The position numbers were made by a program, and so were the translations under genes. From NCBI GenBank assembly GCA_905187815.1, contig CAJJJM010000003.1:63575-127574 (forward strand): 64,000 bases of DNA. Direction: 5' to 3'. Under the pieces are notes generated by a model. That model was not told the origin of the DNA. It saw nothing but the letters and a program-made list of their open reading frames with translations, and ran no database searches. Of this stretch, positions 11,465 through 59,613 are shown piece by piece. Source of the stretch: an uncultured Methanomassiliicoccaceae archaeon. GTDB lineage: Archaea > Thermoplasmatota > Thermoplasmata > Methanomassiliicoccales > Methanomethylophilaceae. The stretch's first letter is position 1, and each line of letters starts with the position of its first letter.

Positions 11465-12481
11465 TCAGTCCATCGCTGAGTTGATGGCGATCTCGGCGAT
11501 GTCCATCGAGTACTCGGCGACCCTCTTGACGCTTCCGGAGATGAGCTCGGCCGCCATTGCGGTCTTCTCGTCCACAGTGCCGTCCAGGTCCCCGATCTCC
11601 TTCGACCTCTCGACCAGCTTCTCGCCGCGCTCGATGCACTTGTTGGCGGTCTCCATGTTCCTGTTGGACCATGTCCCGACAGAATCGGTGAACAGGATGA
11701 CGACGTCCCTTCCCGTGGACAGGATCCTGTCGTCGACCTCCGTGGGCTTCGCCTCTATGATCGGCTTGAGGTTGGATGCCAGGAGCACTGCGTGGTCCCC
11801 GATCCTCTCGATGGACCTGCTGACGCTTCCGCAGCGTGTGATCTCGCAGAGGTCCATGCCCATCCTGCGGGAGATGGTGATGTCCTTCTGGTGGATGTTC
11901 ACCTGGCGTGAGATGAGCCAGTCCAGCCTGTCGACCTCCCTGTCCCTGTCGCTCATACCGTCGATGATCTTCGGGTCCTTCTGCTCGAGGGCGTCGAGGA
12001 CGTCGTTGAGCATGTTCCTGACGAGGACCTTCATCCTCTCGACGGACTTGGCGGGTTTGATCTCGCCCTGGTCCATCAGGTCCTTGATGACGATGCTGTT
12101 CTCGCTCTCCTCGAGGATCTCCAAACCTATGGCGGTCTGGGTGAACGAGGATGCGGTGCTCGCGACCATGCTCGAGAGCTCCCCGTCGGAACGGAGCTCG
12201 ATCACGTCATGGCCGGCGATGTACGCGCCGACGAGCTGCCTGTAGAGGTAGTCGCGGTCGGTGATGCCGTCAGCATCGATGATCTTGGTGGACCCGGCGA
12301 TGGCCGCCTGCTCTCCACCAGGATAGATCACCATGCTCCCGTCGGGCTGCGGCTGGAGCCCGACAGTGTCATTCTTCTTTAGGCCAACGGAGTCGGCCCA
12401 GTCTTTCGGGAGTGTGATCATGAATGATGATCCGCCGGTAATCTGTATCCTTCTTAGGTCCACGGAGGATTGATGCACCAT
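11465..12481 (-). CDS. archaeal phosphate-uptake regulator: SpoVT/AbrB domain fused to PhoU domains
   Basis: N-terminal AbrB-like swapped hairpin (IQITGGSSFMITLPKDWA) followed by two PhoU-like repeats; divergent from pst operon across an AT-rich spacer. Confidence 0.8.
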   Translation of the reverse strand: MVHQSSVDLRRIQITGGSSFMITLPKDWADSVGLKKNDTVGLQPQPDGSMVIYPGGEQAAIAGSTKIIDADGITDRDYLYRQLVGAYIAGHDVIELRSDGELSSMVASTASSFTQTAIGLEILEESENSIVIKDLMDQGEIKPAKSVERMKVLVRNMLNDVLDALEQKDPKIIDGMSDRDREVDRLDWLISRQVNIHQKDITISRRMGMDLCEITRCGSVSRSIERIGDHAVLLASNLKPIIEAKPTEVDDRILSTGRDVVILFTDSVGTWSNRNMETANKCIERGEKLVERSKEIGDLDGTVDEKTAMAAELISGSVKRVAEYSMDIAEIAINSAMD

Positions 12482-20406: not shown

Positions 20407-21711
20407 TCAGTCCCTCATACATCCGATGGGGATCACATGTATCCCATCGGGGCGAGTGTAGGCATATCCGGTGCCGGTGATGATGGCCATGAACGAGAGC
20501 TTGTTACGCTCTTCGATGTCCACTTTCTCCTTCAGTCTCTTGAGTCCGCTGGCCGCCTTATCAACCTTGTCCGGTGACAGCTTGATTTCTATCGCTCCCC
20601 ACCTTCCATCGTTGAGATGGACGATGCAGTCCACCTCCAGGCCGGTGCTATCGCGGTATGCGTAGAGTTTCCCATTGTTAGACTGAGCATATGTCCTCAA
20701 ATCCCGGATGGCCATACACTCGAACAACAGCCCTTCGGTCTCCGGGTCGAACTCTAGGTCTCTTGCTCCTGCGCCGAGGAAGTGTGCTGCTATGGCTGGA
20801 TCGCATAGATACCTCACGTCGGACTTCCTAATCCTGGCCTTCGATCTCAGCTTGGGGCACCACGCAGGGAGGTTCTCAATCATACAGATGTCCTCAAGGG
20901 CATCCATGTAGGAGAGCATCGTGTCCATGCTCATCGCCTTACCCTCGGTCTCAAGCTCATCTAATTGGTGGTCGGATTCGTCTTTGCTGATTCCCAGGAC
21001 ATCGTTGTAGATTGCTGTATCCGAAACCGCCGTGGAGACGTTCCTGGCGAGAGACCTTAGTATGAGCTCCATCTTTCTACGGTTCCTCTTCTTTCCATCA
21101 ATAAATATGTCCGAATCGAGGATGGCCTCGCAGTAGTCTGTTATGATGTCCCCATCATTCCCGGAGAATACCGCATCCGGCCATCCTCCGCGGACGATCA
21201 ATCTGGCGATGTCGGACGCAGTGTGAGGTGATATCCCAGACACGCTCCCCTCAGTGAACAATCTGCCTAAGGAGACCTCTCCGCTTGAATCACCTGATTC
21301 GTAAAGGCTGAGTGTTCTCATGACGACCTTGGCTATGCGTCCCGCACCGGAATGTTGTCTGATGGCGGGCCTGTAGGTTGTGGATCCGGTGAGTATGTAG
21401 AGTCCTTTGGCATGTCTTCTGTCTACGGAGTACCTGACAGCGTCCCAGAGTCCAGGTTCCATCTGCCATTCATCGATGAGACGGGGATTTTCTCCCTCCA
21501 GTAGAAGGGACATGTGGAGGCTTGCTATCTCGTGATAGCGTTTTGAGTTGTCTGGGTCCTGCATATAGATGGCACTCTTGCAGAACTGTTCGGCGGTCGT
21601 CGTCTTGCCGCACCATTTCGGTCCGATGATCACGACTGCTCCGAACAGCCGCAGTTTCTCGGCTATTATGCTATCTACAAGTCTCGATTTGTACTCATAC
21701 TCAAGTTGCAC
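20407..21711 (-). CDS. AAA family ATPase with DUF4143 C-terminal domain (AAA_14-type)
   Basis: Walker A GPKWCGKTT, 434 aa; gene has visibly lower GC than neighbours; GTG start. Confidence 0.8.
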   Translation of the reverse strand: MQLEYEYKSRLVDSIIAEKLRLFGAVVIIGPKWCGKTTTAEQFCKSAIYMQDPDNSKRYHEIASLHMSLLLEGENPRLIDEWQMEPGLWDAVRYSVDRRHAKGLYILTGSTTYRPAIRQHSGAGRIAKVVMRTLSLYESGDSSGEVSLGRLFTEGSVSGISPHTASDIARLIVRGGWPDAVFSGNDGDIITDYCEAILDSDIFIDGKKRNRRKMELILRSLARNVSTAVSDTAIYNDVLGISKDESDHQLDELETEGKAMSMDTMLSYMDALEDICMIENLPAWCPKLRSKARIRKSDVRYLCDPAIAAHFLGAGARDLEFDPETEGLLFECMAIRDLRTYAQSNNGKLYAYRDSTGLEVDCIVHLNDGRWGAIEIKLSPDKVDKAASGLKRLKEKVDIEERNKLSFMAIITGTGYAYTRPDGIHVIPIGCMRD

Positions 21712-29258: not shown

Positions 29259-30245
29259 ATGTCGATAGAGAAGATTGCAGAGGCGATTCGCAGCTACCCC
29301 GGTGTCACCAGGAAGCATGCCATCCACAAGATCGTGGATCTGCTCCCGACACAGGCTTTCCCACAGGTCGTGGCGGCCGAGGGGGAGGATGCGGCGGCTA
29401 TCGACGTCGGCGACCAGTACATCCTCTTCGCCGCTGACGGCATCATGGAATCCCTGGTGAACACGAACCCCTACTACGCCGGCTACTTCGCCGTCCTCGT
29501 CAACGTCAACGACATAGCGGCCATGGGCGGAAGGCCCCTGGGGATGGTCGACGTTATGTCCATCGTCCACGGGGAGGTCTGCAGGGAGATCATCCGCGGT
29601 ATGAAGGAGGGCATCCGCAAGTTCAACGTCCCCATCGTGGGCGGACACGTTCATCCCGACTGCCACTACAACGCCATCGACATCTCCATCGTCGGCAGGG
29701 TCGCCAAGGACGCGCTCCTCAGGAGCAGCACCGCCGAACCCGGGGACGACATCGTCTTCGTCGTGGACATCGACGGTTTCTATCCCGACGACCTCCCGTA
29801 CGCGTTCGTCACAACCGTCGACAAATCCGACGAGGTCGTCCGCGCCCAGATGGAGGCTGCCGCCGTCGTCGGTGACAGGCATCTGGCCCATTCCTGCAAG
29901 GACATGAGCAACCCCGGCAGCATCGGGACGCTCGGTATGATGCTCGAATCCTCCTCCGTCGGAGCACTGGTCGATGTCACCAAGATCCCGCGCCCCGAGG
30001 GAGTCGACGAGGTGAAATGGTACCTCTCCTACCAGGGATGCGGATTCTGCTTCGCCTGCTCCCCCGAGAACTCCCAGGAGATCATAGACATCTTCAAGGA
30101 AGTCGGATGCGAGGGCGCAGTCGTCGGAAAGGTCGACGATACCAGGCAGATGAAGATCACGGACGGGAAGGACACGGCGGTCCTCTTCGATTTCGAGAGC
30201 GAGATCATCACCGGATGCAGGCCCAAGGAGAACAGAAGTGCCTGA
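29259..30245 (+). CDS. AIR synthase-related (PurM-like) protein
   Basis: 328 aa with PurM-like N- and C-domains (AAIDVGD..., VGGHVH). Confidence 0.65.
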   Translation: MSIEKIAEAIRSYPGVTRKHAIHKIVDLLPTQAFPQVVAAEGEDAAAIDVGDQYILFAADGIMESLVNTNPYYAGYFAVLVNVNDIAAMGGRPLGMVDVMSIVHGEVCREIIRGMKEGIRKFNVPIVGGHVHPDCHYNAIDISIVGRVAKDALLRSSTAEPGDDIVFVVDIDGFYPDDLPYAFVTTVDKSDEVVRAQMEAAAVVGDRHLAHSCKDMSNPGSIGTLGMMLESSSVGALVDVTKIPRPEGVDEVKWYLSYQGCGFCFACSPENSQEIIDIFKEVGCEGAVVGKVDDTRQMKITDGKDTAVLFDFESEIITGCRPKENRSA

Positions 30246-30742
30246 CCGCAGGGGTTGACCTCACATCCCGCCTCAAGTTGACCATTTCGCTTCTCGACTC
30301 TGCGACCCCATAAACGTCAGTAGTTCGAGGTGAGGCTGCTCCCGTCAGGACCTGACCCGGTTCCCCCGATTGATGTGTGAACTGCGACCCTCCGGTCGCC
30401 TTCTTCACAAACACCGACTCTACAGGACAAAGTTTCATCGTTGCTAGATGGGCTTGAGTGTTCAGCGGGGCCGTCCCCTGCTGTCGCCCCCGCGTATTGA
30501 CGATTTCGGGTGTAGGGCACGCCAAGCGCCCCGGCCAAGCCAGACAAGGGGCTGATTGTCCCTCTGTTTATAATACCTTGCTCTCTTGGGTCGGGAAAAC
30601 GGCGAAACAACCCGCATGCCTGCCTAGGTGTCCTGACATTCGTAGCAGCCTCTCCGGTACATGCGTTTGGAGAATCATTATATACGATTTCCATGATGTG
30701 GACGTATCCGTGCTACGTGTTAGCACGCCACTTGGTGAGAAG

Positions 30743-44673: not shown

Positions 44674-47508
44674 ATGAAGCCGAGCCTCGTGGTATGCGGC
44701 GGTTGCCGGTCCGTTCTTCTCGACAGCTCGGGCGGGATCAGCTGCTCCGTTTGCGGAAGGTCACTGACGCCGGGGATCGTCCATCCGGGGGCCGTCCTAT
44801 GGGGTGGCGCTGCATATCCTCTTGAGGACCTGATGACGTCCGACAGGGAATCTGCGTCTGAACTCATGGCGGCAATGGACTCCCAGGAGTTCCGGAGGGC
44901 CGCCAGAATCCTCGACGACGGGATCCTCGACGGCACCATAAATATCCAGGATGCCGGCTTCCTTGTAGCCGGGTGGTTCCTCCTGTCCGTCATGAGAGGA
45001 GATGGGGTGGACGGGAAATTCGTCCCTGTCCTATCCATTGGTCACGGCCCATCGGTTTCCCTGGCCGTGTTCAGATCTCTGACCGCAAACAGGGATCAGA
45101 TGGATACAGGACAGCGGATAGCGGCTCTGGATTCCATCTGGTCGACATCAGTAGAAACGATCCCCTCGGAGCACAACCTTCCCGCATCTCTCGTGATAAT
45201 GTCCATTTCGAACGACATCATGGGGGAGATCGCCGAAGGGCTCTCCGGTGTGGATCAGGACATTCTCCGGAAGAGGCGCGGGTTCCTCGGCATGTTCGAC
45301 AGCATCGTCAGCCCCATCGTATCGCAGCTCTTCCTACCCTACCTAGATGAGGCGATCGGTTTCTGGAGGAGGGCGGACGCCGGGATCGATGGGCTCTTCA
45401 GGGATTCTATGGAGGCGTATCTGGAAGGAGATCCCGCCAGGTCAGGTGACCTAGCAAAAGGGTTCGTCATCCGCTACCTGTCGATGGACCGCTGCCGTGA
45501 TATCCTCGCGAGCAATGGCGACGTATCCGGTTGCACGGACTTCCTCACGACGGTGATCACCGATCAATCCGGAGCAATCGTTCGCGATTTGGAGGGTTCG
45601 TGTTCGGGGGAGCCATGGTGGCCCGTAGTAGTCGGAGCCGTCGGAAGACTGGGGGAGGACGTCTTCGACGTGCGTGCGGAGCTGACCGGTATCCTCGAGG
45701 CTCATCCCGACAAGGATGCCGAGATACGCAAGTGCATATGCTCTGAAGCTGTCCAATGGCTGAGGGGGCTCATCGCCTCAGGAGGCGTATACGATGGCGA
45801 GATCGATGGGATCTATGATCTCTTCCCCTGCGTCGACCCCGAAGGTCCCAATGACAGGAGCTATGTCCTTCTCCAGATGATCTTCCTATGCGGGAACGAG
45901 TCGGCCGCTGTGGATGACGCATCCGGAGCCAAGACCCTCTTCAGAACGGTGGTGTCCCTCACATGCGGTTCCCTCTCCGCGTCAAGCTCCCTCATGGGCA
46001 TCCGCTCCGCCGCTTCCGCAGCGGCATTCGTCCTGTTCGAACTGGGCCGTCGCTTCCGCGATCCGTCTGGAGATCGCGACCCGATGATGCTGGTCGCCCG
46101 TTTCCTGTCCGATACCTCCCTGCTCCTTGAGGAGCATCTCTCGGATATGGGCGGGGAGGTGGCGGATCTCAGGATGGCGATGAGGTACAAGGTCGGTGCC
46201 CTTTCCCGTCCACATCCGGATGCTGGGGAAATCCTCGGGGAGTTCTACGAGGCGGCAGTGCTCAGAGCGATATCGGCGGAGGAGCTCGAGGGTGAGTTCG
46301 CAGGGAGGATGGAGTCGTTCGTCGAACTCCTGACCGAACCCGTATCGGATCCGTTTCCCGAGGATATGTGCGATGGCGGGCCGTCAGATTGCGACACTGT
46401 CTGTGAGACGACCGATTCGGTCTCCCCGCTCAGCATCGCCTGCTTGCTATCCGATCCCGTCTATGCGGTCCATGGGAGCACCTCCGAATCAGTGCCGATG
46501 TTGTTCATCATCGGGTGCGATGCATGCGGCTGCAGGACGCTTGTGAGCACAGGTTCCGTTGACAACCGGTGCGGCCGTTGCGGAAAACGCATAGATCTCT
46601 CGGGTGAACATCTCGAAAGGATAAAGGCACTGAGGGAGAGATCCATCGACGCTGCAGACCGGGCAAGGAAGGATCTTTCAGAAGGTCGTTTACGGGACGC
46701 CGTATCGGAATGCTACAGGACAATGGATGACGATCCGATGTGCTGGCATTGCGCCCTCGTCTCAGGGATGGCCAACATGTCCGCAGGCTCGAACAGCGAC
46801 GCATTCCTGGATTGGACCCGTGCCCTGCTGGGCCTCCGTCCCCTCGGCAGAGACGAGTTCGACGAATTCTACGTCAGTGTCCTTGGACAGATTCACAGGT
46901 CGATCCGCTCCGGGATCGCCTCGGACGGGACGGTCCCGGCCATGATCACATTACCGGATTTCGCCCTTGTTCTGAGAAGGCACTTCCCGGACATGATGTC
47001 GGGGCGCGACCTCATCGACGACCTGCTGGCTATGCTCTCCGAAGACATCGGATGCTGCGGTTCCATCAACGAGCTACGGGTTCTTTTGCAGGAGATGTCC
47101 CAGATCGTGCTGTACAAGCATTACTGCACGACGGACATCAGGGAGCACATCAGGGGATGCGCGATCATGATCGTGGCCGCAGAGAAGGCGGACGAGTGCA
47201 TAGGGTCCATAGAGGCACCATCAGCTTCGAAGGCAGCGTTTTCAGCGTCGACGGAGACGCTGCGCTCCATGTACTCGGCCATCCAGAAGTCCCTGAGTGA
47301 CGGAATCGAGGGGATGTCCGATGAGCATGTCGACAAGATAGCCGGATCATGGGGCTATCCAGACTACTACGCCTTGGCCGATATGTTCGTGGGCTCCTGC
47401 CTGGACTGCTTGGATCTCGTCCGCCGTGGCAAGGGGATGACGCCCGATGCCATGAGGCGGGTGGAGGAGTGCGTCAGGATCTACCTGGGAGGGCCGACCT
47501 CCTTCTGA
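44674..47508 (+). CDS. large hypothetical protein with multiple zinc-ribbon-like Cys clusters
   Basis: 944-aa ORF; N-terminal CGGC...CSVCG and central CDACGC...CGRCGK cysteine pairs; no other recognisable domain; GC and codon usage like host. Confidence 0.55.
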   Translation: MKPSLVVCGGCRSVLLDSSGGISCSVCGRSLTPGIVHPGAVLWGGAAYPLEDLMTSDRESASELMAAMDSQEFRRAARILDDGILDGTINIQDAGFLVAGWFLLSVMRGDGVDGKFVPVLSIGHGPSVSLAVFRSLTANRDQMDTGQRIAALDSIWSTSVETIPSEHNLPASLVIMSISNDIMGEIAEGLSGVDQDILRKRRGFLGMFDSIVSPIVSQLFLPYLDEAIGFWRRADAGIDGLFRDSMEAYLEGDPARSGDLAKGFVIRYLSMDRCRDILASNGDVSGCTDFLTTVITDQSGAIVRDLEGSCSGEPWWPVVVGAVGRLGEDVFDVRAELTGILEAHPDKDAEIRKCICSEAVQWLRGLIASGGVYDGEIDGIYDLFPCVDPEGPNDRSYVLLQMIFLCGNESAAVDDASGAKTLFRTVVSLTCGSLSASSSLMGIRSAASAAAFVLFELGRRFRDPSGDRDPMMLVARFLSDTSLLLEEHLSDMGGEVADLRMAMRYKVGALSRPHPDAGEILGEFYEAAVLRAISAEELEGEFAGRMESFVELLTEPVSDPFPEDMCDGGPSDCDTVCETTDSVSPLSIACLLSDPVYAVHGSTSESVPMLFIIGCDACGCRTLVSTGSVDNRCGRCGKRIDLSGEHLERIKALRERSIDAADRARKDLSEGRLRDAVSECYRTMDDDPMCWHCALVSGMANMSAGSNSDAFLDWTRALLGLRPLGRDEFDEFYVSVLGQIHRSIRSGIASDGTVPAMITLPDFALVLRRHFPDMMSGRDLIDDLLAMLSEDIGCCGSINELRVLLQEMSQIVLYKHYCTTDIREHIRGCAIMIVAAEKADECIGSIEAPSASKAAFSASTETLRSMYSAIQKSLSDGIEGMSDEHVDKIAGSWGYPDYYALADMFVGSCLDCLDLVRRGKGMTPDAMRRVEECVRIYLGGPTSF

Positions 47509-50386
47509 TCTCATCGGTCAGCGTCCCTCCGGTGAGCGGTTCGAACCTCTTCGTGCGGCCCAAGGATACATAGTCGATGAAGCAGACTGCTCTGCGTTTG
47601 TAATACAGGGATGCGGCCTCGGCGTATACCGAGAGCTGGAACATGTATTCCTGTTCGAAACGGTCCGAGACATCGGTCTTGTAGTCATGGACCTCCACCC
47701 TGTCAGGATACACCGCGAGGAGGTCTATCCTGCCGCTCAGGACGATTCCGCAGTCCGGCACCGGAAGAGTGCAGTCGAGCTCCGCGAAAAGCAGGTCCGC
47801 GTCCCTGCAGCCGTCGATGATCCTGCGGATCATCTCCATCTCGGGGAAGTCGTCGTTGACGAGCCAGCCCTCCTTCACCGCCTGAGCCGCTTCGTGGACC
47901 CTCTCGCCGTACTCCTTGCCCTTCCCCGGGACCTCGTCCGCCTCCGACATCCCTCCGAGGCCGTCATCCTGTGAGAATCCCATTAGGGTGTGAACCCCGA
48001 CCTTCTTGGTACGGACCCGGTAGCCGGTCACATCCGGCCTGGGGACCGTCAGGGGATCCTTGCCGTGTTCCCTGGGAGGACATTCCGGAATGGTCGCGTA
48101 CTCCTCGTTCGAGAGCATCTTCATGAACTTCGACGGTTTGTCTCCGCAGATCAGGGTCTCGTACTGCCTCGCCCTGGACATGGCAACGAACATCAGCCTG
48201 CGCTCCTCGCTGTAGTCCGTATCCTTGGAGGCCTTCGCCAGCTTCGTCCTCCAGGATGTGCAGATCTTGGAGTAGTCCCCGAAGCGGCCCACCTCCTGCG
48301 AGCATCTGACGCCCAGCTCGGAATCGAATGAGAACGACTCCCCCCTTCCGCTCTCGATCAGGGGCATCGTCTTGGAGTCCATGTAGGGGATGATGACCGC
48401 CTCGAACTCCAGACCCTTGGATTTGTGCATCGTCATGATCGTGACTGCGTTGGAGTCGATGGAGTTCTCCACCGGATACAGGGTCCTGTCAGCGATCCCG
48501 TCCTCGATTATGCGGATCAGGTCGGAGATGGTCAGGAGCGAGTCGCGGTGTGCGGCGGAAAGGGTGGTGATGATGGCCTGGGTGATCTCGTTGTTGAGGC
48601 CGTAGAACGAGTAGATCGATGTGAGCAGCTCGGTGATCCTGCGGGTCTTCTTCCTGAGCTCCTTGCGCTGGTTCAGAATCTCGAACGGGACCATGTTGCG
48701 GTCCCCGCGGATGCGTATGCATTCTGAGAGCGAATAGCCGAGGTCGGCGAGTATGGGCATGCACCCCCACGGGTCGTCGTCGTTGCTGATGTACCTGAGC
48801 CAGGCGAGGGCCAGCTTCCCCTCTCTGGTGGACATGATCTCCATGTCCCCCTGCATGAAGGCAGGGATGCCCGCCTCCTTCAGCCTCTCCAGGACGGTCC
48901 TGCAGCTGTTCGTCTTGCGGCACAGGACCGCTATGTCCCCGTAGCCCATGGGCCTGGCGGAGTCGCCGGAATGGACGGTGTACCTGCCGGAGTCCACGTA
49001 GTCGCGGATGCATCTGACCACCTCTTCGGCCTCCTCGTCCGCGGAACCGCACTGGACGTAGCGTATGTCGGTGTCGCCGTCCGGGATGTCCGTCCTCCCG
49101 GCCTCGAGCGGCTGGGCCTTCTCGACGTCCTCCTGGCGGATGGAGCCGTCCTCGTTGGTGGCTTTAAGCGACAGGCAGCGGAAGGCCTCGTCCACAATCC
49201 GTCTGGATGACCTGTAGTTGACGTTGAGCGCTATCTCGGAGACCTCGGGTATTCCCACGGCAACTCTCCTCTCGCCCTCGTTCAGGAACGACCTGAGCGC
49301 CCTCGCCCTGTCCCCGAACATGGTGATGTTCTCGATCGAGACGTATCTGAAGCCGTAGATCCCCTGCTTCCAATCACCGACGACGCACAGGTTGGGCTCC
49401 CTGAGTATCATGAGGGCGATCATGAGCTGGCTGGCGTTGGTGTCCTGGAACTCATCGATCATCACGTATCTGTAGGAGTTCCTGGCCCTGACCTCCGGGT
49501 CGCCGTAGAGAAGGGAGAACGCGAGCATCGCGCTGATGCCGAATGTGAGGCGGTCCTCGGTGATGCTCCTCCTGATGTACTGATGGTAGATGTCGTGGAC
49601 GAGCCTGAGCATATCCGTCCTAGTGGGGTCTTCGGCCGCCTCGGCGAGACGCTGGGGATCGACGGTCCCTCCGACCACCGTAGGGAGATCGCATGCGTTG
49701 TTCACGTCCAGCTTCAATATGGGATCGGCCATAGCGGACGCCCCTCCTCTCTTGCCAGGGACGTTCCGGGACTCCATCATGCGGAGCGTCTCTTCGACGT
49801 CTCCCATGAGGATCCTGTCGGAATCCATGCCGAACCAGCCCCTCTTCATCGGGTAGACCCCGCGGGACATCAGGTTGTTTATCAGTTTCAGCAGCCCGTC
49901 GGGATTCTGGCTGGCTATGGATTCCCAGTCTCCGTAGTCCCCGAGGCGGTCGTGCAGGAACCTGTCGAGGAACATCCTGAAGTGCTCCTTGTTCAGAGAC
50001 TCGTTGCTGGAGATGGTCGCTCCGCGGGTGAGCCTCTCATCTATCCCGAACATCCTCCCGGCATCCTCGGGGGAATCCATGATGACGGAAAGGCAGAACG
50101 CGTCGAACGTCTTCGCCTGGACCATCCTGGATTTGGATTCGAGCTCCGGATGCAGCGCCAGCTCCCCCTTGATGCGCTCCTCCATCTCGTTGGCGGCGTT
50201 GTTGGTGAAGGTCAGGAGCAGGACCTCCCGCGGGTCGACGTCGGGTCTGGATATCAGGTTCACGTATCTGCTCACGATCGTATGGGTCTTCCCCGTCCCA
50301 GGGCCGGCGTCGACGAGGACCATCCCGTCCAGGGTCTCGGCGATCATCCTCTGGCGGTCGTTCAGGCCGTCATTCATCGTCCTCAC
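47474..50386 (-). CDS. UvrD-family helicase fused to C-terminal RecB-type PD-(D/E)xK nuclease (AddA-like)
   Basis: Walker A AGPGTGKTH, DEFQD Walker B, VNYRSS motif, helicase motif VI; C-terminal GRIDLL...EVHDYKTD nuclease motif. Confidence 0.8.
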   Translation of the reverse strand: MRTMNDGLNDRQRMIAETLDGMVLVDAGPGTGKTHTIVSRYVNLISRPDVDPREVLLLTFTNNAANEMEERIKGELALHPELESKSRMVQAKTFDAFCLSVIMDSPEDAGRMFGIDERLTRGATISSNESLNKEHFRMFLDRFLHDRLGDYGDWESIASQNPDGLLKLINNLMSRGVYPMKRGWFGMDSDRILMGDVEETLRMMESRNVPGKRGGASAMADPILKLDVNNACDLPTVVGGTVDPQRLAEAAEDPTRTDMLRLVHDIYHQYIRRSITEDRLTFGISAMLAFSLLYGDPEVRARNSYRYVMIDEFQDTNASQLMIALMILREPNLCVVGDWKQGIYGFRYVSIENITMFGDRARALRSFLNEGERRVAVGIPEVSEIALNVNYRSSRRIVDEAFRCLSLKATNEDGSIRQEDVEKAQPLEAGRTDIPDGDTDIRYVQCGSADEEAEEVVRCIRDYVDSGRYTVHSGDSARPMGYGDIAVLCRKTNSCRTVLERLKEAGIPAFMQGDMEIMSTREGKLALAWLRYISNDDDPWGCMPILADLGYSLSECIRIRGDRNMVPFEILNQRKELRKKTRRITELLTSIYSFYGLNNEITQAIITTLSAAHRDSLLTISDLIRIIEDGIADRTLYPVENSIDSNAVTIMTMHKSKGLEFEAVIIPYMDSKTMPLIESGRGESFSFDSELGVRCSQEVGRFGDYSKICTSWRTKLAKASKDTDYSEERRLMFVAMSRARQYETLICGDKPSKFMKMLSNEEYATIPECPPREHGKDPLTVPRPDVTGYRVRTKKVGVHTLMGFSQDDGLGGMSEADEVPGKGKEYGERVHEAAQAVKEGWLVNDDFPEMEMIRRIIDGCRDADLLFAELDCTLPVPDCGIVLSGRIDLLAVYPDRVEVHDYKTDVSDRFEQEYMFQLSVYAEAASLYYKRRAVCFIDYVSLGRTKRFEPLTGGTLTDEIRRRSALPGRS

Positions 50387-53024
50387 CCCCTTCGACTTCG
50401 ATGACGTCCCTTGTGCATGCCTCGAAGTAATCGCATTTCCTGCAGTCCACCTTCGGCATGGCCTCGAAATCGGTCAGGGACTTCTCCACCGCCTGCGAAT
50501 GCATGGCGTCGACCATCTCCAGGAACGCGTCCAACACTTCCGATGGGACCTCGACGGACCCCGTGGTGACGACCATCCCGTCCATTATGTGACTGGCCAG
50601 CTTCCCTATCGCCACCGACGCGTCTTTCTCCGCGTTGTTCCCGGTCAGGCCGACGTTCTCGACGACGGCGTTCACTACCGCAGGATCGTTCCTCCACCCC
50701 GATGGGTCCCCAGATGCTGTCCCGGCGACAGCGTCTATGATCGTCTCCGCGTGTTCCCTCATGTCTTTCTTGAGTTCTTCCCGGAGATCATCGAGGAGCG
50801 CACGGCTTCCGGCTATGCATCCGTTCGTGCCTCCGTCCACAACGGAGACCGTGCGTATGTTGCGTCTGATGTCGAAATCAGGGTCGGACGACTCGACGTC
50901 ATGGTCCATCACATAGAACAGGTCGAACCTGCCGGAGAACCCCGGCACGGTCTCGGATGCTATGGCCAGGTAGAGGAGCGGCTGGAACTCGTAGTATTTG
51001 GCACCGGAGTCAGGGGTCATGGATGCGCCGATATTCTTGCCTTCGAGGCCCTTCCCTGTCTTGTAGTCCGTTATGACACCGTCCCACAGGAGGTCGAACT
51101 CCCCGTGGATCTCATGGGCAGTCGACTGATGGTCGGTCTCGCAGGAGGTGCTCGACGTCTCGAGTCCGAGGAGCTCTATGAACCTGTTGGGATGCTTCTT
51201 CCTGGAGTTGGAAGCGTCCAGGGTCGCTCTGACCCCGCGCAGGTCTATGTAGCGCATGATGTTGCGCATGGCCTGCCTGACCGCATCGGAATCGAACTCC
51301 TCCATCGTGGGGGATGACAGTCCAGAATAGCGGTCGGAGATCATGTTCACGAAGCTGTCGATGCCCATGCGTCTGACCTCGTCCCCGTGGCATGCGTACA
51401 GCTCCGCGAACGAGTGGATGAGGGTCCCGAACTCGATTACCTTCTTCTCCTCGGAAGGCAGGAGGGCGTTGAACATGTACCTGCGCGGACAGGAGTAGTA
51501 CGCGTCGAAGGATGTCTTTGAGAACTTCCTCTTGAAGGTCTCCACGCCGTCGATGATCATCTCGCCGCGCTTCCTTCCGGCAGGCGTCTCGTCGGAGAGC
51601 CATCTTCCGCGGACCAGGGGGGCTATGTCAGAGAACCTCTCGCACTTCCTTTTCAGGATCTGGTCGAAGAACAGGCAGGGTCTCGCATCATCCCCGCGCT
51701 TGGTGGTGTTGACGATGTATATCCGCCTCTCCCCCTGCTGGATCAGGGCTGAGAATCTGAGGGCGTTCTTCTCGGACTCGGACTCCGGATCGATGTACCT
51801 CCTGCCGACAGCCGGGACGTTCCAGTCCTGCTCCATGCCCAGGAAGATGACGACGGGCCTGTCCACGTACACGGAGTTGTGGCAGTCCGCCAGGAGCACC
51901 CCTGTGCGCTCCTTCTCCGGGATCTCCTCGTTGTGCTTCAGCTCCTTGACGTTGTCCACTGCGTACCTGAGCTCCGACAGCCTGTCGGGCGTGACGGTCT
52001 TGTCCAGCATGCCCAGGCTCTTCAGGACGGTCCCGACCCTTGACTTGCCGGTGGGGTCGCAAATGGCGTCCATCACCTCCTCGAAGGTCATCCCGTCGTA
52101 GAACGCGCGTTGCATTATCCCTCTGAGGCGGTGCTCGCCGGGAACCATGTCCTCGTCCTCGTCGATCTTGGATAGGAGGAATCCTTCCCTCCCCGGCCTG
52201 AAGTACTCCTTGTACCCGGTGAACAGCTCCTTCACCTGCCCCACGCGCACGGTCTCGAAGTCCATGGCGTGGGCAAGGAACCCGATGTAGTCCCTGATGG
52301 GTGTGAGGTCCCTGACGGAGAGGCTGTTCACGAAGGGGAGGTCCCTGCGGTAGAGGGCAGCCCTGACGGCGTCGGCTATCGGGGAGGAGGCGTTCATGAC
52401 TATGGCGAAGTCGGAGGGGCTCTCGGGATCGACCAGGTCCGCGGCGTGCTCCGCCAGCTGGCGGTCGTTCCCGACCTGGTGGAAGCACTCTATCTCGAAG
52501 TCCCCCGGCTTGACGATCTCTATCACATCGTGCTCCAGTGGCGTGAAGTGCTTGTCCAGGTCGTCGAACAGCTCGGGTCCGATGATGGCGACCCTCTTGC
52601 CCTCGAGTATCTCAGGGGTCTTCACCGCGGGGTCGAAGTCCCCCATGGCCTTCTCCCTCGTGGGCAGGTCGCGGTATGCGTCATAGACCCTGCGGGAACG
52701 GGCAGTCGTGAGATTGGCCCTGACCTCCCTGGTGTACCTCCGGATCTCCCTGAAGTTCAAAATCTCGCTGTAGACGTACTTGAAGTCCAGCTCCGTGTCC
52801 TCAGCGACCTTCGCGACCAGCTCCAGGTCGTTCATCTCGTAGTCCTGCAGGATCCCGTGGGAGAGCAACCCAGCGAGATGGCGCGGCGTGATAGCGAAGA
52901 CCCCCATGCGCACCGTGTCGATCCTGGCGTTCAGGGCCGTCTCCAGCGCGGCGTCGTTGGTGATGACGAGGTCGTAGCCGCGGACCTCCTCGTATAGCTC
53001 GTCGATGGACTTCAGGAGCTGCAT
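50370..53024 (-). CDS. AddB-like subunit: degenerate helicase-like N-region plus Fe-S PD-(D/E)xK nuclease domain
   Basis: 884 aa, no Walker A; C-terminal nuclease motifs (FGTLIHSF, GEFDLLWDG...DYKTG) bracketed by Cys (YYSCP ... CRKCDYFEAC) as in AddB/Cas4-type Fe-S nucleases; start overlaps addA-like stop. Confidence 0.7.
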   Translation of the reverse strand: MQLLKSIDELYEEVRGYDLVITNDAALETALNARIDTVRMGVFAITPRHLAGLLSHGILQDYEMNDLELVAKVAEDTELDFKYVYSEILNFREIRRYTREVRANLTTARSRRVYDAYRDLPTREKAMGDFDPAVKTPEILEGKRVAIIGPELFDDLDKHFTPLEHDVIEIVKPGDFEIECFHQVGNDRQLAEHAADLVDPESPSDFAIVMNASSPIADAVRAALYRRDLPFVNSLSVRDLTPIRDYIGFLAHAMDFETVRVGQVKELFTGYKEYFRPGREGFLLSKIDEDEDMVPGEHRLRGIMQRAFYDGMTFEEVMDAICDPTGKSRVGTVLKSLGMLDKTVTPDRLSELRYAVDNVKELKHNEEIPEKERTGVLLADCHNSVYVDRPVVIFLGMEQDWNVPAVGRRYIDPESESEKNALRFSALIQQGERRIYIVNTTKRGDDARPCLFFDQILKRKCERFSDIAPLVRGRWLSDETPAGRKRGEMIIDGVETFKRKFSKTSFDAYYSCPRRYMFNALLPSEEKKVIEFGTLIHSFAELYACHGDEVRRMGIDSFVNMISDRYSGLSSPTMEEFDSDAVRQAMRNIMRYIDLRGVRATLDASNSRKKHPNRFIELLGLETSSTSCETDHQSTAHEIHGEFDLLWDGVITDYKTGKGLEGKNIGASMTPDSGAKYYEFQPLLYLAIASETVPGFSGRFDLFYVMDHDVESSDPDFDIRRNIRTVSVVDGGTNGCIAGSRALLDDLREELKKDMREHAETIIDAVAGTASGDPSGWRNDPAVVNAVVENVGLTGNNAEKDASVAIGKLASHIMDGMVVTTGSVEVPSEVLDAFLEMVDAMHSQAVEKSLTDFEAMPKVDCRKCDYFEACTRDVIEVEGGEDDE

Positions 53025-55250: not shown

Positions 55251-56582
55251 ATGGCGGAGACCGTCACGGTTACACAGCTGAACTCCCGTGTCAAGACCAT
55301 CCTCGGGAACTCCCCAGCTGTCAGGGACATCTGGGTCAACGGGGAGATCTCCAACCTGAAGAGATACCCCTCGGGCCATTATTACTTCACGCTCAAAGAC
55401 CCGGGCAGCGAGATACGCTCCGTGATGTTCGCCCACAGCCGCCAGAGGATCGATTTCGAGCCCAAGGAGAACATGAAGGTCTCCGCATTCGGATCCGTGG
55501 ACATGTACGTCCAGAGGGGAGCGTACCAGTTCGTCGTCGAGAGCATGAGGCCAGCGGGGGTCGGCGACCTGTACCTGGCTTTCGAGGCTCTGAAGAAGAA
55601 GCTGGAGGCAGAGGGTCTTTTCGAGCAGTCACGGAAGAGGAGCCTTCCCCGGTACCCGAGGACTATAGGGGTCGTAACCTCCGAGAAAGGCGCCGTCATA
55701 CACGATATCATCACCACATCCGCATCCCGCTTCCCAGCCGACATCATACTCGCTCCGGCTCTGGTCCAGGGGGAGGGCGCCGCGGATTCCATCGTCGCCG
55801 GGATCAGGCTCCTGAACAGGATCGGCGTGGACGTCATCATCGTCGGCAGGGGCGGCGGGTCCCTCGAGGACCTCTGGGCGTTCAACGAGGAGCCGGTGGC
55901 ACGTGCCATCGTCGCCTCCGAGGCGCCTGTGGTCTCCGCCGTGGGGCATGAGACGGACTTCACCATCGCGGACTTCGTCGCCGATGTCAGGGCGCCCACT
56001 CCGACCGGTGCCGCCGCCATCATCCTGAGGGACAGGACCGAGATAATGAACCAGGTCGTGACGGACATGGCCAGGGCCTCACGCGCCCTCTCCGGTTCGC
56101 TGGACCGCATGAGGCACAGGTTCGAGGTTCTCGACGCACGGCTCTCCCCGGAGAAGGCGCTCGATGACCTCAGCATGAAGTCGATGGCCCTTGACGACCT
56201 GATGAACCGGTCGCAGAACGCCCTGAACGGGAAGGTTGGCGACATGAGACGCAGATACGAGGTCGTGAACGCCAAGCTGTCGCCGGTCGCCGGCCTATCC
56301 CGCATCGATGTCCTCAGGGGGCGCGTGGACAGCCTCTGCTCCCGTGCGGAGTCAGCCACCGTCAGAAGGATGGAGGGATCAGGAGCCAGACTGGAGTCGC
56401 TGTCAGGCAGATTGGACTCCCTCAACCCGATGAACGTGCTCTCGAGGGGATACGGGATGGTGACCGTGGACGGCACGGCCATAACGTCCGTGGACGACAT
56501 CGAGGTCGGCGGGATGGTGAGGATCCATCTGAGGGACGGCTCAGCGGCCGCCCAGATCAAGGAGAAGGAGAAAGATGACTGA
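55251..56582 (+). CDS. xseA: exodeoxyribonuclease VII large subunit
   Basis: N-terminal OB fold (VTQLNSRVKTILG...VWVNGEISNL) and catalytic core (GRGGGSLEDLWAFNEE), C-terminal coiled-coil. Confidence 0.9.
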   Translation: MAETVTVTQLNSRVKTILGNSPAVRDIWVNGEISNLKRYPSGHYYFTLKDPGSEIRSVMFAHSRQRIDFEPKENMKVSAFGSVDMYVQRGAYQFVVESMRPAGVGDLYLAFEALKKKLEAEGLFEQSRKRSLPRYPRTIGVVTSEKGAVIHDIITTSASRFPADIILAPALVQGEGAADSIVAGIRLLNRIGVDVIIVGRGGGSLEDLWAFNEEPVARAIVASEAPVVSAVGHETDFTIADFVADVRAPTPTGAAAIILRDRTEIMNQVVTDMARASRALSGSLDRMRHRFEVLDARLSPEKALDDLSMKSMALDDLMNRSQNALNGKVGDMRRRYEVVNAKLSPVAGLSRIDVLRGRVDSLCSRAESATVRRMEGSGARLESLSGRLDSLNPMNVLSRGYGMVTVDGTAITSVDDIEVGGMVRIHLRDGSAAAQIKEKEKDD

Positions 56583-56817
56583 TTATGAGAACGTGGATGA
56601 GATGAGCTTCGAAGAGAGCATCGACGCCCTCGAGGGCCTGGTCAAGAGGCTCGAGGACGGCGGCATCGACCTAGACGAGAGCCTGAGGATCTACGAGCAG
56701 GCGGTCGCCCTCAGGGACCACTGCAAGAGGATACTCGAGGACGGAGAGCGCAGGATAAAGAAGATCATGGAGACGGCCGACGGCACGGTCAGGGAAGAGG
56801 GGTTCGACCTCGACTGA
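56575..56817 (+). CDS. xseB: exodeoxyribonuclease VII small subunit
   Basis: 80 aa; FEESIDALEGLVKRLEDG...LDESLRIYEQAVAL canonical XseB; overlaps xseA end. Confidence 0.85.
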   Translation: MTDYENVDEMSFEESIDALEGLVKRLEDGGIDLDESLRIYEQAVALRDHCKRILEDGERRIKKIMETADGTVREEGFDLD

Positions 56818-57676
56818 CGATGTCCCAGAGGGTCACGCCCTTCTCGGATGCCCATGATGCGGTGTCCCTGTAAAGATCGGTCTTCACGAAGCACTGGTCC
56901 GAGAACGCGAGCCTCAGGGCTCCTCCCAGCTCGCCCTCGTTGAGCCCGCGGCTGTTGAACGAGCCGAAGTTCTTCTTCAGCGCGATCAGGAGGATGCTGA
57001 CTGTGTCGTGGCCCCTGGCCGCGTCCCACTGGTCCTCCAGATCCTGCGCTGCGTCGTCTAGCCTGGAGAGCAGGGCCTTCCTGCCCATGCGGCAGCTCTT
57101 CGAATTGAATATCACCGCATCGACCATCGCCCCGGCGTTCAGGGACAGGGTCCTCGGGTTGATGAAGCGCTCGAACTCCAGGTCCTTGAAGCTGAGGTTC
57201 AGACCCTCCCTCTGGGAGATGAACATCAGGAGGCCCAGCGGATAGCTGGCTGAGATCAGCGCATCCCTCACGGGCCCCACCGTCTCGGTGAACCTCGCAA
57301 GAAGGTCCTGGTCGGAGTACTCGTCCAACACGTCTTGGAGCGCGTTGCTCCGTATGACCATCATCTCCATGTCGCGGCAGTCGGTGTGGAAGAGTGGAGG
57401 TTTGGCCCGCTTCCCCCGGAGCCTGTCGAGGTCAGGGTCAACAATCCCTATGACCCTGCCGTCGCCCCTTTCCGACGACATCCCCTTGACCGCGTTGCGG
57501 ACGTTGTCCTTGGAATGGGCCTCGATGATGCGGACTTCGTCTTTGTCAATGAACTTCTCGAAAAGGCGCTCGTCGGTGACGCCCTCCACAATGAGGAACG
57601 TCCCCCTGAACACCGACCTCTCCATGGAGATCTGGTTGCAGATGTCGTCCGGTGTGATGTACTCACGCATCGACAT
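56789..57676 (-). CDS. DUF4435 / OLD-type TOPRIM-like nuclease protein (AriB-like)
   Basis: 295 aa; LIVEGVTDERLF (Toprim Glu) and IGIVDPDLD (DxD) motifs; immediately downstream of and overlapping an ABC-type ATPase gene. Confidence 0.65.
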   Translation of the reverse strand: MSMREYITPDDICNQISMERSVFRGTFLIVEGVTDERLFEKFIDKDEVRIIEAHSKDNVRNAVKGMSSERGDGRVIGIVDPDLDRLRGKRAKPPLFHTDCRDMEMMVIRSNALQDVLDEYSDQDLLARFTETVGPVRDALISASYPLGLLMFISQREGLNLSFKDLEFERFINPRTLSLNAGAMVDAVIFNSKSCRMGRKALLSRLDDAAQDLEDQWDAARGHDTVSILLIALKKNFGSFNSRGLNEGELGGALRLAFSDQCFVKTDLYRDTASWASEKGVTLWDIVSRGRTPLP

Positions 57677-58724
57677 GCCTCAGCTCCCTTGCGGAGTCCC
57701 ACATGTCGTGGATGACCTGCGGCGAATGGGTGGCGACGATCATCTGGATGCCCCTCACTCTGCAGATATCGCTGTAGTACCTTCCGAGCTTCTGCTGCCA
57801 GCTCACATGGAGGGATATCTCGGGTTCGTCCAGTATCACCACCGATCCGGCATCCGCGTGGAAGAGAAGAGCGAAGAACATGATCAGGATCTGCTTCTCA
57901 CCCGATGAGAGCCTCTGGATCGGGAGCGACATGCCGTTGTACATCGTGATGCCGATCTTCCCGTTCTCGGACACGGTGACGGACTTGTCGATGAAGAACT
58001 CGTTCACTATGTCCTTGAAGATGATGACGGACTCCGCCAGGGTGTAGTTCCGGTCCACGTACTCGGATATCGATGCTGTGAGAGACATGTAGCCCTCGCG
58101 GTCCTTGGCTATCTCGTACCTCGAAGGAGGGAACTTCATCCTGGGGGGCAGCTCGGGCTCGAATCCTGCGTCCTTGATGAAGTCCAGCTTGGCCTTCAGG
58201 TCCTTGGCCCAGAACTCCAGCTCCCCATCGGTGAGGTCGTCCCTGGCATGCTCCGGATGGGGCTCGAGTTCGGAGTGCTCCTTCGCGTAGCGGAACCTCT
58301 CGTACAGCTCGTGGGCGTACGCCTCCAGGGTGGGGACGATGTGCCCGTCCCTCTTCCTGTAGGCCAGTCTCTCCGGCGGTATGTAGATGGACTTGCAGAC
58401 CTCGGCCATGTCGTCTGGTGTGAGGGGCACGTCCACCTCGTTCTTCTGCATGAGGACGTTCAGCCTCCCGTCGTAGTTCTGGAGGACCATGATCGCCTCG
58501 TCCTCGAACCAGATCTCCATCCTCTCGAACGGCGTCTCGGAAAGGTACCTCATGTCGCCTTTGAGGGCGGCATACACCATGTGCATCAGGGTGCTCTTCC
58601 CCATCCCGTTAGGGGAGTGGATGAAGGTCAGTGGCCCGCACAGGTCCAGGTCGTAGTCGTATTCCGAGAACAGTTTCGTTACGTGAATGGATTCGATCAT
58701 CATGGCCGCCCTCAGGATTGCCAT
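57663..58724 (-). CDS. AAA_15/AAA_21-type ABC ATPase (AriA-like); start may be at 58703
   Basis: Walker A SPNGMGKST, inserted helical region, signature LSSGEKQ, Walker B VVILDEPEISLH, H-loop VATHSP; no transmembrane partner. Confidence 0.75.
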   Translation of the reverse strand: MAILRAAMMIESIHVTKLFSEYDYDLDLCGPLTFIHSPNGMGKSTLMHMVYAALKGDMRYLSETPFERMEIWFEDEAIMVLQNYDGRLNVLMQKNEVDVPLTPDDMAEVCKSIYIPPERLAYRKRDGHIVPTLEAYAHELYERFRYAKEHSELEPHPEHARDDLTDGELEFWAKDLKAKLDFIKDAGFEPELPPRMKFPPSRYEIAKDREGYMSLTASISEYVDRNYTLAESVIIFKDIVNEFFIDKSVTVSENGKIGITMYNGMSLPIQRLSSGEKQILIMFFALLFHADAGSVVILDEPEISLHVSWQQKLGRYYSDICRVRGIQMIVATHSPQVIHDMWDSARELRHVDA

Positions 58725-58779
58725 CTAGATATTTTGGCTTGACGCTAGGTTTATTTGAGCATCATGGTTCCATCCCCTC

Positions 58780-59613
58780 ATGGACGCGGACGCCGCATTC
58801 GCCGAGATCAGGAACGAGATAGCTCAGGGAAGGGGGGCAGAGGTCGGCCCCAGGCTGCTTGAGATAGCAGAGTCCGACAAGGACCCCATGAACCGCATCA
58901 AGTGCCTCTCGCTCCTCAAGGTCATCGACGTCTCCGGTGTGTCGAAGGAGATTCTCCGCATGCTTCTCGAGGACCTTCCCGATGACCGCGCCACCCTCGT
59001 GCAGGTCGCCGGCGCCCTCCGCGGTCTAGAGTATCCGTCCAGCGCCCTCTCCATCCTGAAGGAGATGGATCAGGACGATTCCATCATCAGGATGTCTGCC
59101 CTGTGCCTCATCGACCTGGAGGAGTACGAGGACGCCATGGCCAAGGCTGATCAGATAAGGGAGGTCACCCCGTTCGACCGCGTCATGCTCACCGAGATCA
59201 AGAGCGCCCTGGGGATGCACAACGAGGCCATCGGCATCGCGACCGAGCTCCTGGAGGAGTTCCCCCAGAACTACGAGGTCAGGAGGGCCTACGTGTCAGC
59301 GCTGATGCTCGGCGGGAAGGACAAGGAGGCAGCCAGGTACGCCAGGGCTGCCGTGAAGGACAAGACCGCGGACTCCAACGCGATAGCCGCCTACGTCCTG
59401 AGGATCGCAGGCAACTACAAGGCGGCCGCGGGATACGCCACCAGAGCCATCAACATCGACAACGGCCACATCGGGGCCATGGAGACCCTGGGGATATGCC
59501 TCGCGGACAAGGGCGAGTACGACAAGGCCCGCATCATCGCAGGGGCGATCAACGAGAAGTCCCCGGGGGACAAGGCCGCCCTCAACGTCCTCTCGTACTG
59601 CGAAGGTCACTGA
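58780..59613 (+). CDS. TPR-repeat protein
   Basis: 277 aa with repeated 34-residue helical-hairpin periodicity. Confidence 0.65.
   Translation: MDADAAFAEIRNEIAQGRGAEVGPRLLEIAESDKDPMNRIKCLSLLKVIDVSGVSKEILRMLLEDLPDDRATLVQVAGALRGLEYPSSALSILKEMDQDDSIIRMSALCLIDLEEYEDAMAKADQIREVTPFDRVMLTEIKSALGMHNEAIGIATELLEEFPQNYEVRRAYVSALMLGGKDKEAARYARAAVKDKTADSNAIAAYVLRIAGNYKAAAGYATRAINIDNGHIGAMETLGICLADKGEYDKARIIAGAINEKSPGDKAALNVLSYCEGH

Follow-up and report, generated by a model that had tools for sequence, protein, structure and literature searches.

The 64,000-nucleotide window considered here is a stretch of contig CAJJJM010000003.1 (assembly GCA_905187815.1, positions 63,575 to 127,574) from an uncultured Methanomassiliicoccaceae archaeon, a gut methanogen. 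Within it, two overlapping minus-strand genes encode an ATP-binding cassette (ABC) ATPase resembling AriA and a DUF4435 protein with a Toprim nuclease site resembling AriB, the two components of the PARIS anti-phage system (Table 1). A first-pass annotation, made from the DNA letters alone, had singled out this pair as an archaeal immune module. The two open reading frames lie exactly where it had placed them, and all the ATPase and DUF4435 protein motifs that it quoted are found at the residues given. Its description of the setting also holds: convergent xseA/xseB genes flank the pair on one side and TPR, trkH and trkA genes on the other, and the guanine-plus-cytosine (GC) content of the pair is host-like, at 0.594 compared with 0.589 for the window.

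Table 1. Coordinates of the ATPase-nuclease pair and its sequence elements in the 64-kb window.
Feature	Position	Strand	Remarks
AriA-like ABC ATPase gene	57663..58703	(-)	~346 aa from clade-consensus start Met8
ATPase longest open reading frame	57663..58724	(-)	353 aa
ATPase Walker A	58590-58607	(-)	GMGKST, residues 40-45
ATPase Q-loop-like YIPPER	58365-58388	(-)	
ATPase signature	57891-57911	(-)	LSSGEKQ, residues 272-278
ATPase Walker B	57807-57836	(-)	ILDEPEISLH, residues 297-306
ATPase H-loop	57720-57734	(-)	ATHSP, residues 331-335
ATPase helical-domain apex	58116..58223	(-)	residues 168-203, ELEFWAKDLKAKLDFIKDAGFEPELPPRMKFPPSRY
AriB-like DUF4435/Toprim nuclease gene	56789..57670	(-)	293 aa from consensus start Met3
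DUF4435 protein longest open reading frame	56789..57676	(-)	295 aa
Nuclease E31, D35 motif	57569-57589	(-)	VEGVTDE, residues 30-36
Nuclease D80, D82 motif	57425-57442	(-)	VDPDLD, residues 79-84
Nuclease catalytic E104	within 57365-57385	(-)	
Nuclease RGHD motif	57005-57019	(-)	counted among catalytic residues
Start/stop overlap	57663..57670	(-)	8 nt, ATGCGTGA
Divergent intergenic region	58704..58779	strand-neutral	76 bp, common to ATPase and TPR genes
TATA-like AAAATAT	58729-58735	minus	~29 nt upstream of ATPase Met8
TTTATTT	58750-58756	plus	~27 nt upstream of TPR ATG

The limits of both genes can be refined. Alignments across the clade of related archaeal pairs described below place the ATPase start at Met8/9 (ATG at 58703) and that of the DUF4435 protein at Met3 (ATG at 57670), and these are almost certainly the real starts. 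With them, the overlap shrinks from 14 nt to the 8 nt of ATGCGTGA, read as Asp-Ala-stop at the end of the ATPase and as Met-Arg-Glu at the beginning of the nuclease. The PARIS-type gene order and overlap are thus retained and only the length of the overlap changes; likewise, the ATPase is indeed compact, at ~346 rather than 353 residues, and the E. coli AriA against which it had been measured has 464 rather than about 470. Overlaps of the ATGCGTGA type are the commonest junction between the two genes in the clade, and the 8 nt are probably a point of translational coupling. Upstream of the ATPase, inspection for consensus elements only suggests back-to-back leaderless archaeal promoters in the region that it shares with the divergent TPR gene.

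By every testable criterion, the pair belongs to the PARIS family (OLD class 4). The published rule calls for adjacent genes matching AAA_15 at 32 bits or more, or AAA_21 at 27 bits or more, together with DUF4435 at 27 bits or more (Rousset et al., 2022), and the pair fits it: in Pfam, the ATPase scores 60.4 bits for AAA_21 (cut-off 27) and 52.6 bits for AAA_15 (cut-off 32.1), and the second protein 48.1 bits for DUF4435 (cut-off 27). Among the PADLOC models, the best match of the ATPase is AriA PDLC04164 (95.5 bits, 9e-28), and the sole significant match of its partner is AriB PDLC02983 (66.4 bits, 1e-18, positions 1-232 of 236). As a control, a close relative of the canonical E. coli PARIS (locus L088) scored 103 bits for AriA and 41 bits for AriB with the same models. 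A sequence search of the PDB returned E. coli AriA first for the ATPase (2.2e-22), with retron, Septu and UvrA ATPases at 1e-6 or weaker, and hhalign aligned it end to end with an E. coli-type AriA (residues 4-441, 99.5% probability, E 4e-23). AlphaFold single-chain models were confident, with a pLDDT (predicted local distance difference test) of 91.8 in the case of the DUF4435 protein and of 85.7 in that of the ATPase; the top 16 Foldseek matches of the ATPase model were all AriA (3.5e-20), followed by Rad50 (6.5e-13).

For the DUF4435 protein, the link to solved AriB was settled by structure comparison and not by sequence. No solved AriB relative was detected with the single sequence, a 17-sequence profile or hhalign; this is not counted against membership because a genuine AriB from a P2 hotspot fails in the same way. 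The protein has the AriB fold with a Toprim two-metal site, and a bridging alignment equates its E31, D35, D80, D82 and E104 with E26, D30, D88, E90 and E122 of E. coli AriB, so that the five acidic Toprim positions are common to proteins of only 13-17% identity. The tRNA contacts K60/K64 of E. coli AriB could not be reliably mapped onto it. The ATPase shares with E. coli AriA the signature, the H-loop, the Walker A lysine and the Walker B glutamate (K43 and E300, invariant in 78 of 78 species; K39 and E393 in E. coli). Neither protein matched any NCBIfam model above its cut-off, and no RNase M5 model was matched. Thus, in the Pfam, PADLOC, PDB and structure comparisons, neither of two outcomes that the first-pass annotation had named as fatal to it, a non-Toprim second protein or a transporter-type ATPase, was found.

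Several other assignments were tried and rejected. For an ABC transporter subunit, ABC_tran reached 24.7 bits, below its cut-off of 25 and over the Walker A region only, all NCBIfam transporter matches fell far under their cut-offs, and no permease gene is adjacent. In AbiL and Septu, the partner nuclease is of RloB type (AbiLii) or HNH type (PtuB), whereas the second protein here matches DUF4435/AriB only, with no RloB or HNH match. Septu PtuA and the retron-associated PtuA-like proteins are AAA_15/21 ABC ATPases with a helical insert, as is the clade ATPase, and yield its second-best PADLOC matches (1e-22) and Foldseek values of about 1e-10 to 1e-12, below the scores of AriA; the partner in Septu is the HNH nuclease PtuB instead of a DUF4435/Toprim protein. 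Gabija and the other class 1 and 2 OLD systems (P2 Old, Thermus/Burkholderia OLD, Gabija GajA) have the ATPase and Toprim domains fused, whereas here they are encoded by separate genes. Gabija also needs the GajB helicase, the structural likeness to these proteins is much weaker than that to AriB, and GajA is not among the top 25 PADLOC matches of the ATPase. An ABC ATPase encoded together with a Toprim protein is also reminiscent of RecF-RecR.

The PARIS system of E. coli B185 (PDB 8UX9, 8V45-8V49) is likewise built of two overlapping genes in one orientation, the ATPase gene preceding that for the DUF4435/Toprim protein. The archaeal pair could be an ordinary active PARIS abortive-infection system, as the first-pass annotation proposed, in which the ATPase senses a viral protein and the nuclease cuts host tRNA, and which is merely stably inherited. 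Both components are genuine family members whose active sites are intact, the genes are ordered and overlap as in PARIS, archaeal PARIS has been reported in the literature, and some defence systems do track phylogeny within a species, for example in N. meningitidis, PARIS included. How far this explanation carries depends on the distribution of the pair, to which the E. coli system offers a contrast: the latter sits in a P4 satellite hotspot, whereas the former keeps one chromosomal position throughout an archaeal family.

With one genome per species scanned, relatives were found in 130 species genomes, and the best 80 of these 130, from 86% down to 45% identity, were used for comparison (L-numbers denote the loci of relatives; neighbours were located by tblastn with the window's own neighbour genes). 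All of the best 80 are Methanomassiliicoccales-type contigs, with the shared order TPR, ATPase-DUF4435, xseB-xseA. Among the loci compared, the ATPase gene is directly upstream of the DUF4435 gene wherever the contig extends, TPR-trkH-trkA lie upstream of the pair in most loci, and Methanomethylophilus, Methanoprimaticola, Methanoplasma, Methanogranum and Methanomicula are the named genera at the locus. For both proteins, the close relatives form a smooth identity series from 100% to about 55%, the named ones belonging to Methanomethylophilaceae or Thermoplasmata. Candidatus Methanoprimaticola, with only 66% identity in the protein, has gene for gene the neighbours seen in the window. In the window these are Nre, Ppx, Ppk, HisD, TrkAH and TPR before the pair, and XseBA, DUF4442, PDDEXK_1 and UvrD after it. 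No integrase, transposase, tRNA or defence gene occurs in that neighbourhood, and no clade member was found on any of 2.9 million viral contigs.

A mobile defence system would be expected to show a patchy distribution, mobile elements, hotspots or islands; this locus is instead syntenic in 80 of 80 species loci, within a region of about 12 genes that is collinear across the family. This collinearity and the lack of mobile or defence neighbours indicate that it is not a defence island, and the first-pass description of the pair as a 'defence-island singlet' gives way to that of a conserved, collinear housekeeping region. Some records with bacterial titles (L012, L013, L014, L017, L020, L029, L030, L031 and L033, titled Lachnospiraceae, Bacteroidaceae, Firmicutes CAG:194, Prevotella hominis, Dialister hominis, Bacteroides ovatus, Ruminococcus and Bifidobacteriaceae) have full archaeal synteny at 59-71% identity, and these 'cleanbin' records look mislabelled or contaminated.

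Conservation of the pair beside xseAB across related archaea was also the finding that, according to the first-pass annotation, would tell against its own proposal, and it was found: xseB-xseA is convergent downstream, with xseB adjoining the pair, in 74 of the 81 loci, under vertical inheritance, and most of the remainder are contig ends. A fully exapted pair of housekeeping enzymes, devoid of toxin or immune logic, would fit such core-like inheritance and the housekeeping-grade constraint described below. It might be, for instance, an ATP-driven Toprim nuclease that serves repair together with XseAB and the AddAB-like genes, in line with the repair-rich surroundings (Nre, XseAB, PDDEXK_1 plus UvrD; XPD in L038), or an enzyme of RNase M5-like rRNA/tRNA maturation. 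Adjacency to xseAB is not specific evidence for such a role, however, because collinearity extends over the entire stretch of about 12 genes. The exonuclease genes are genuinely absent beside the pair in L037, L038 and L041 (in L038 they are replaced by a PNPOx-like gene and an XPD helicase gene), with the pair kept, and a pair of this kind is found at 0 of 76 bacterial xseA loci. When xseA was used as bait in metagenomes, four in-clade loci were recovered, of which the two informative ones both have the DUF4435 gene beside xseB. A functional link specific to xseAB is thus improbable; the conserved unit is the pair itself.

The folds bear on the same explanation. The head of the ATPase is SMC/Rad50-like (Foldseek 6.5e-13 to Rad50), and the AriB active site resembles, according to the literature, the Toprim two-metal RNase site of RNase M5, with JGI calling relatives 'ribonuclease M5'. 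However, AriA is clearly closer than Rad50; the clade ATPase has neither the long coiled coil nor the zinc hook of Rad50, and its partner is not an Mre11 phosphoesterase. RNase M5 is monomeric and has no ATPase partner, and the small Toprim proteins 2i5r/2fcj match the nuclease only weakly (Foldseek probability 0.3-0.5). Overall, the predicted structures of the pair are far nearer AriA and AriB than Rad50, OLD or small Toprim proteins, and the overlapping two-gene design and the conserved N-terminus of the nuclease suggest that a logic of sequestration has been kept. A purely housekeeping pair is therefore considered unlikely. In IMG, the AriB-like proteins P0252, P0397, P0400 and P0404, including those from Methanosarcina, are named '5S rRNA maturation endonuclease (ribonuclease M5)', probably because the Toprim domain is over-annotated at the COG level.

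Next to the pair, the TPR/HEAT-repeat protein (277 aa, 58780-59613, plus strand) is encoded divergently from the pair at almost every locus, with the 76-bp promoter region common to both. Where the usual TPR gene is missing, in L076, a different 454-aa TPR protein is encoded directly upstream on the same strand (L076:7488-8852). A TPR protein is a possible third partner of the pair.

The pair is inherited vertically at this fixed locus and co-diverges with its neighbours. Pairwise identities of its two proteins rise and fall with those of xseA, trkA, trkH and TPR (r = 0.77-0.93), and the housekeeping genes correlate among themselves as tightly as they do with the pair; mean identity is 0.54 for the pair, 0.57 for xseA, 0.50 for trkA and 0.45 for trkH. 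Ratios of nonsynonymous to synonymous substitution (dN/dS) over the nine closest genomes are 0.153 for the ATPase and 0.170 for the nuclease, beside 0.18 for xseA, 0.23 for TPR and 0.30-0.31 for trkA/H, all of them only approximate because dS, at about 0.9, is near saturation. The catalytic motifs are intact in 78 of 78 ATPases and in 81 of 81 nucleases. Over 78 species, the ATPase alignment is nearly free of indels, and residues 168-207 (LEFWxKDLKAKLDFIKDAGFEPExP...FPPSRY) are the most conserved non-catalytic stretch, equal to the catalytic motifs. The loop of residues 148-167 is variable. In the nuclease, the most conserved part is the N-terminus (residues 3-42).

These observations also bear on the possibility of a selfish, toxin-antitoxin-like addiction module, in which loss of the ATPase would unleash the nuclease with no benefit to the host. 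The genes are tightly coupled, and AriA was named 'antitoxin' by the PDB depositors. Such modules, on the other hand, decay in the long run by inactivation of the toxin, whereas the nuclease is intact throughout with a dN/dS of 0.17, in small streamlined genomes; moreover, E. coli AriB alone is only modestly toxic and the pair shows no mobility. This explanation is thus very improbable.

The gene junctions show some variation of their own. In 12-14 species, a synonymous CGT>CGC change in an Arg codon of the nuclease abolishes the ATPase stop codon, turning ATGCGTGA into ATGCGCGA (L010, L017, L020, L024, L027, L029, L030, L031, L034, L035, L041 and L045, the junction lying about 10 kb into most of these loci). 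The ATPase frame then stays open across the nuclease gene, out of frame with it, for another 51-321 codons (4 codons in one case), with a median extension of 126 codons compared with 42 codons of open frame in normal loci (p = 0.001), and all ATPase motifs remain intact. GC content at third codon positions is 0.84 in the stop-loss species and 0.76 in the others, for which reason the loss is probably GC-driven. Assembly error was rejected because the change occurs in 12-14 independent genomes, and a programmed fusion is unsupported, there being no slippery site and the frame being wrong. At the other end, the DUF4435 gene and the convergent xseB overlap by 29 nt at their 3' ends (56789-56817), and by at least 8 nt in other species, leaving no space for a separate terminator between them.

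The boundary between this clade and full-size PARIS is drawn by the length of the ATPase. An exhaustive profile search resolved the DUF4435/AriB-like family into 3,281 clusters at 50% identity, of which about 11 top-scoring ones constitute the archaeal clade; below them, the scores fall into a long continuum. The first representatives outside the clade are taxonomically scattered (Methanosarcina barkeri 3, Clostridium botulinum/sporogenes, Heliophilum and uncultured organisms among them), and their DUF4435 proteins, the nearest outside the clade, show 32-41% identity and 220-270 bits against the clade profile. These outgroup pairs have the same gene order but variable or defence-type contexts, beside Shedu SduA and IS21, close to a remnant of DDE type or adjoining a second SMC-like ATPase, in contrast to the fixed clade pair. 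More distant plasmid and phage relatives are classic PARIS, located by XerS on a Bacillus plasmid, in a Salmonella IncHI2 island and in a Yersinia P2-like phage hotspot between CI and integrase. In the clade, the ATPase has 342-359 residues in 65 of 78 species; the outgroup ATPases (P0251, P0252, Methanosarcina barkeri 3 and C. botulinum) reach 440-463 and carry an insertion of about 90 residues immediately ahead of the Q-loop, absent from the clade. Thus, trimming of the ATPase coincides with fixation at this locus.

In the hhalign alignment to E. coli-type AriA, ~41 residues are missing on one side of the Q-loop and ~33 on the other, and further gaps of ~14 and ~20 residues fall in the helical domain and at the C-terminus, respectively. 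In E. coli AriA, the central-pore loop (113-124), the radial-pore loop (161-174) and IS1 (122-180) are the proposed trigger-recognition elements, and IS2 (242-289) serves hexamer assembly. The clade ATPase, about 118 residues shorter, has its gaps at the central-pore loop, the radial-pore loop and IS1, although the helical alignment is of low confidence; the equivalent of IS2, the apex included, seems to be largely kept, with its alignment tentative. The first-pass suggestion that so short an ATPase would answer to a different trigger is consistent with the apparent lack of the pore-loop regions. One lineage has gone further: in L093 (4029-4826, plus strand), the ATPase has 265 residues and has lost most of the helical domain, while the trkA-trkH-TPR-pair-xseBA synteny is kept. 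This natural 'minimal AriA' retains Walker A, Walker B, the signature and the H-loop and aligns end to end with PADLOC AriA PDLC04164 (5-241 of 253 positions).

For the ordinary, merely stably inherited PARIS system considered above, these results are difficult to accommodate. The variability of ATPase loop 148-167 would suit a sensor of viral proteins. Against this, a single syntenic locus persists down to 42-45% identity across five named genera with no signs of transfer, rates and dN/dS resemble those of housekeeping neighbours, pseudogenes number zero among about 78 species, and the locus lies outside any defence island and off viral contigs. Furthermore, the pore-loop regions appear to be gone and the rest of the surfaces are strongly conserved, whereas the pore residues of bacterial AriA are poorly conserved. 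An ordinary PARIS system is accordingly regarded as rather unlikely.

The favoured interpretation, to which a probability of roughly 0.5 is given, is that of a domesticated, PARIS-derived ATPase-nuclease switch that became a fixed, core-like module after a single capture and subsequent trimming. A PARIS-family pair would have been acquired one time, in an ancestor of the methanogens of Methanomethylophilaceae type; its ATPase would subsequently have lost the trigger-binding pore-loop segments and part of the helical inserts, and the pair would then have passed vertically, single-copy and core-like, under housekeeping-grade purifying selection. In E. coli, AriA and AriB build an AriA6:AriB3 propeller complex in which the N-terminal 53 AriB residues lie over the AriA ATP sites, and AriB, freed on trigger binding, cleaves tRNA. 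By analogy, an ATP-bound head-to-tail ATPase dimer, or possibly a higher oligomer formed via the conserved helical apex, may keep the nuclease inactive by holding its conserved N-terminal 40-50 residues. A signal would alter the state of the ATPase and free the nuclease, which would dimerise and cut RNA, most likely tRNA as AriB does, and so arrest translation. Because the sensing surfaces appear to be trimmed and the remaining ATPase is nearly indel-free and strongly conserved, an invariant cue, either a host stress signal or an unavoidable viral feature, appears more likely than a fast-evolving phage anti-restriction protein. Whether domestication went as far as a core function of the family, with the ATPase gating the Toprim RNase on an endogenous cue and not on viral proteins, is a more tentative matter, with the odds somewhat against it; stress-induced tRNA/rRNA cleavage, translational shut-down and RNA quality control would be possible roles of this kind.

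Several points weigh against the domesticated switch. The 80 loci were all retrieved through the pair itself, which leaves its prevalence without a denominator, and the independent sample baited with xseA, for which the search patterns were too generic, gave only two informative archaeal loci, both with the pair. Near-saturation of dS blunts the comparison of selection, and the placing of the deletions at IS1, IS2 and the pore loops hangs on helical regions that align with low confidence. E. coli PARIS is the source from which the proposed complex, release step, RNA target and trigger are all carried over, and the interface between ATPase and nuclease is a putative one, the models being of single chains. 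R28 and R31 of E. coli AriB, which contact AriA, are not kept in the clade and correspond to V33 and E36 of the nuclease. Stop-codon loss in 12-14 species is hard to fit with a finely tuned stoichiometric switch. Finally, vertical inheritance alone is compatible with an immune role.

The rest of the window holds further features of interest. Downstream of the pair, a repair set of bacterial type in an archaeon comprises exonuclease VII (XseA/XseB, 55251-56817, plus strand), whose XseA shares about 40% identity with hundreds of bacterial counterparts from metagenomes, and an AddAB-like pair (47474-53024, minus strand) of a 970-aa UvrD-family helicase and an 884-aa PDDEXK_1 nuclease with a C-terminal Cys cluster. 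Between a P-type ATPase gene and the UvrD-like helicase gene, a 944-aa open reading frame (44674-47508, plus strand) has no Pfam match at E <= 1e-5. An AAA_14 plus DUF4143 ATPase gene (20407-21711, minus strand), beside ribosomal protein S19e in the lowest-GC patch of the window (0.486, 21-22 kb), could be a small inserted element. Another protein (11465-12481, minus strand) unites an N-terminal MazE/AbrB-type (SpoVT-AbrB) domain with a PhoU domain, and its gene adjoins that of a phosphate-transporter permease (BPD_transp_1, 13648-15669) in a lower-GC stretch. An archaeal signal recognition particle RNA at 30239-30546 on the minus strand (Rfam RF01857, 171.9 bits) shows the window to be archaeal, and ARAGORN found no tRNA genes across the 64-kb window.

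The first-pass claim of an undescribed archaeal immune module cannot be upheld in that form. The published rule of AAA_15/AAA_21 plus DUF4435 already covers archaea and fits the pair, and full-size PARIS pairs also exist in Methanosarcina; archaeal PARIS itself is already known. For a fixed PARIS clade in Methanomassiliicoccales, no prior report was found in the literature, and the family-wide syntenic vertical inheritance of the clade, the minimal AriA and the coincidence of both appear to be undescribed. From a practical standpoint, automated surveys of defence systems will record a 'PARIS' at this conserved locus for each of the family's genomes. The minimal AriA (~346 aa, and 265 aa in one lineage) is usable for structural and mechanistic work, and the contrast with the full-size mobile outgroup pairs indicates which ATPase segments are likely to be behind trigger sensing. 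Defence systems are usually transient, mobile and fast-evolving, and the clade, a whole family of host-associated methanogens, thus represents a natural experiment in the fixation of such a system, which would have led either to highly durable immunity towards a cue that does not vary or to exaptation for some cellular function. If the reading as a domesticated core module is true, an OLD/PARIS immune system would have been exapted for housekeeping or regulation in this family of archaea.

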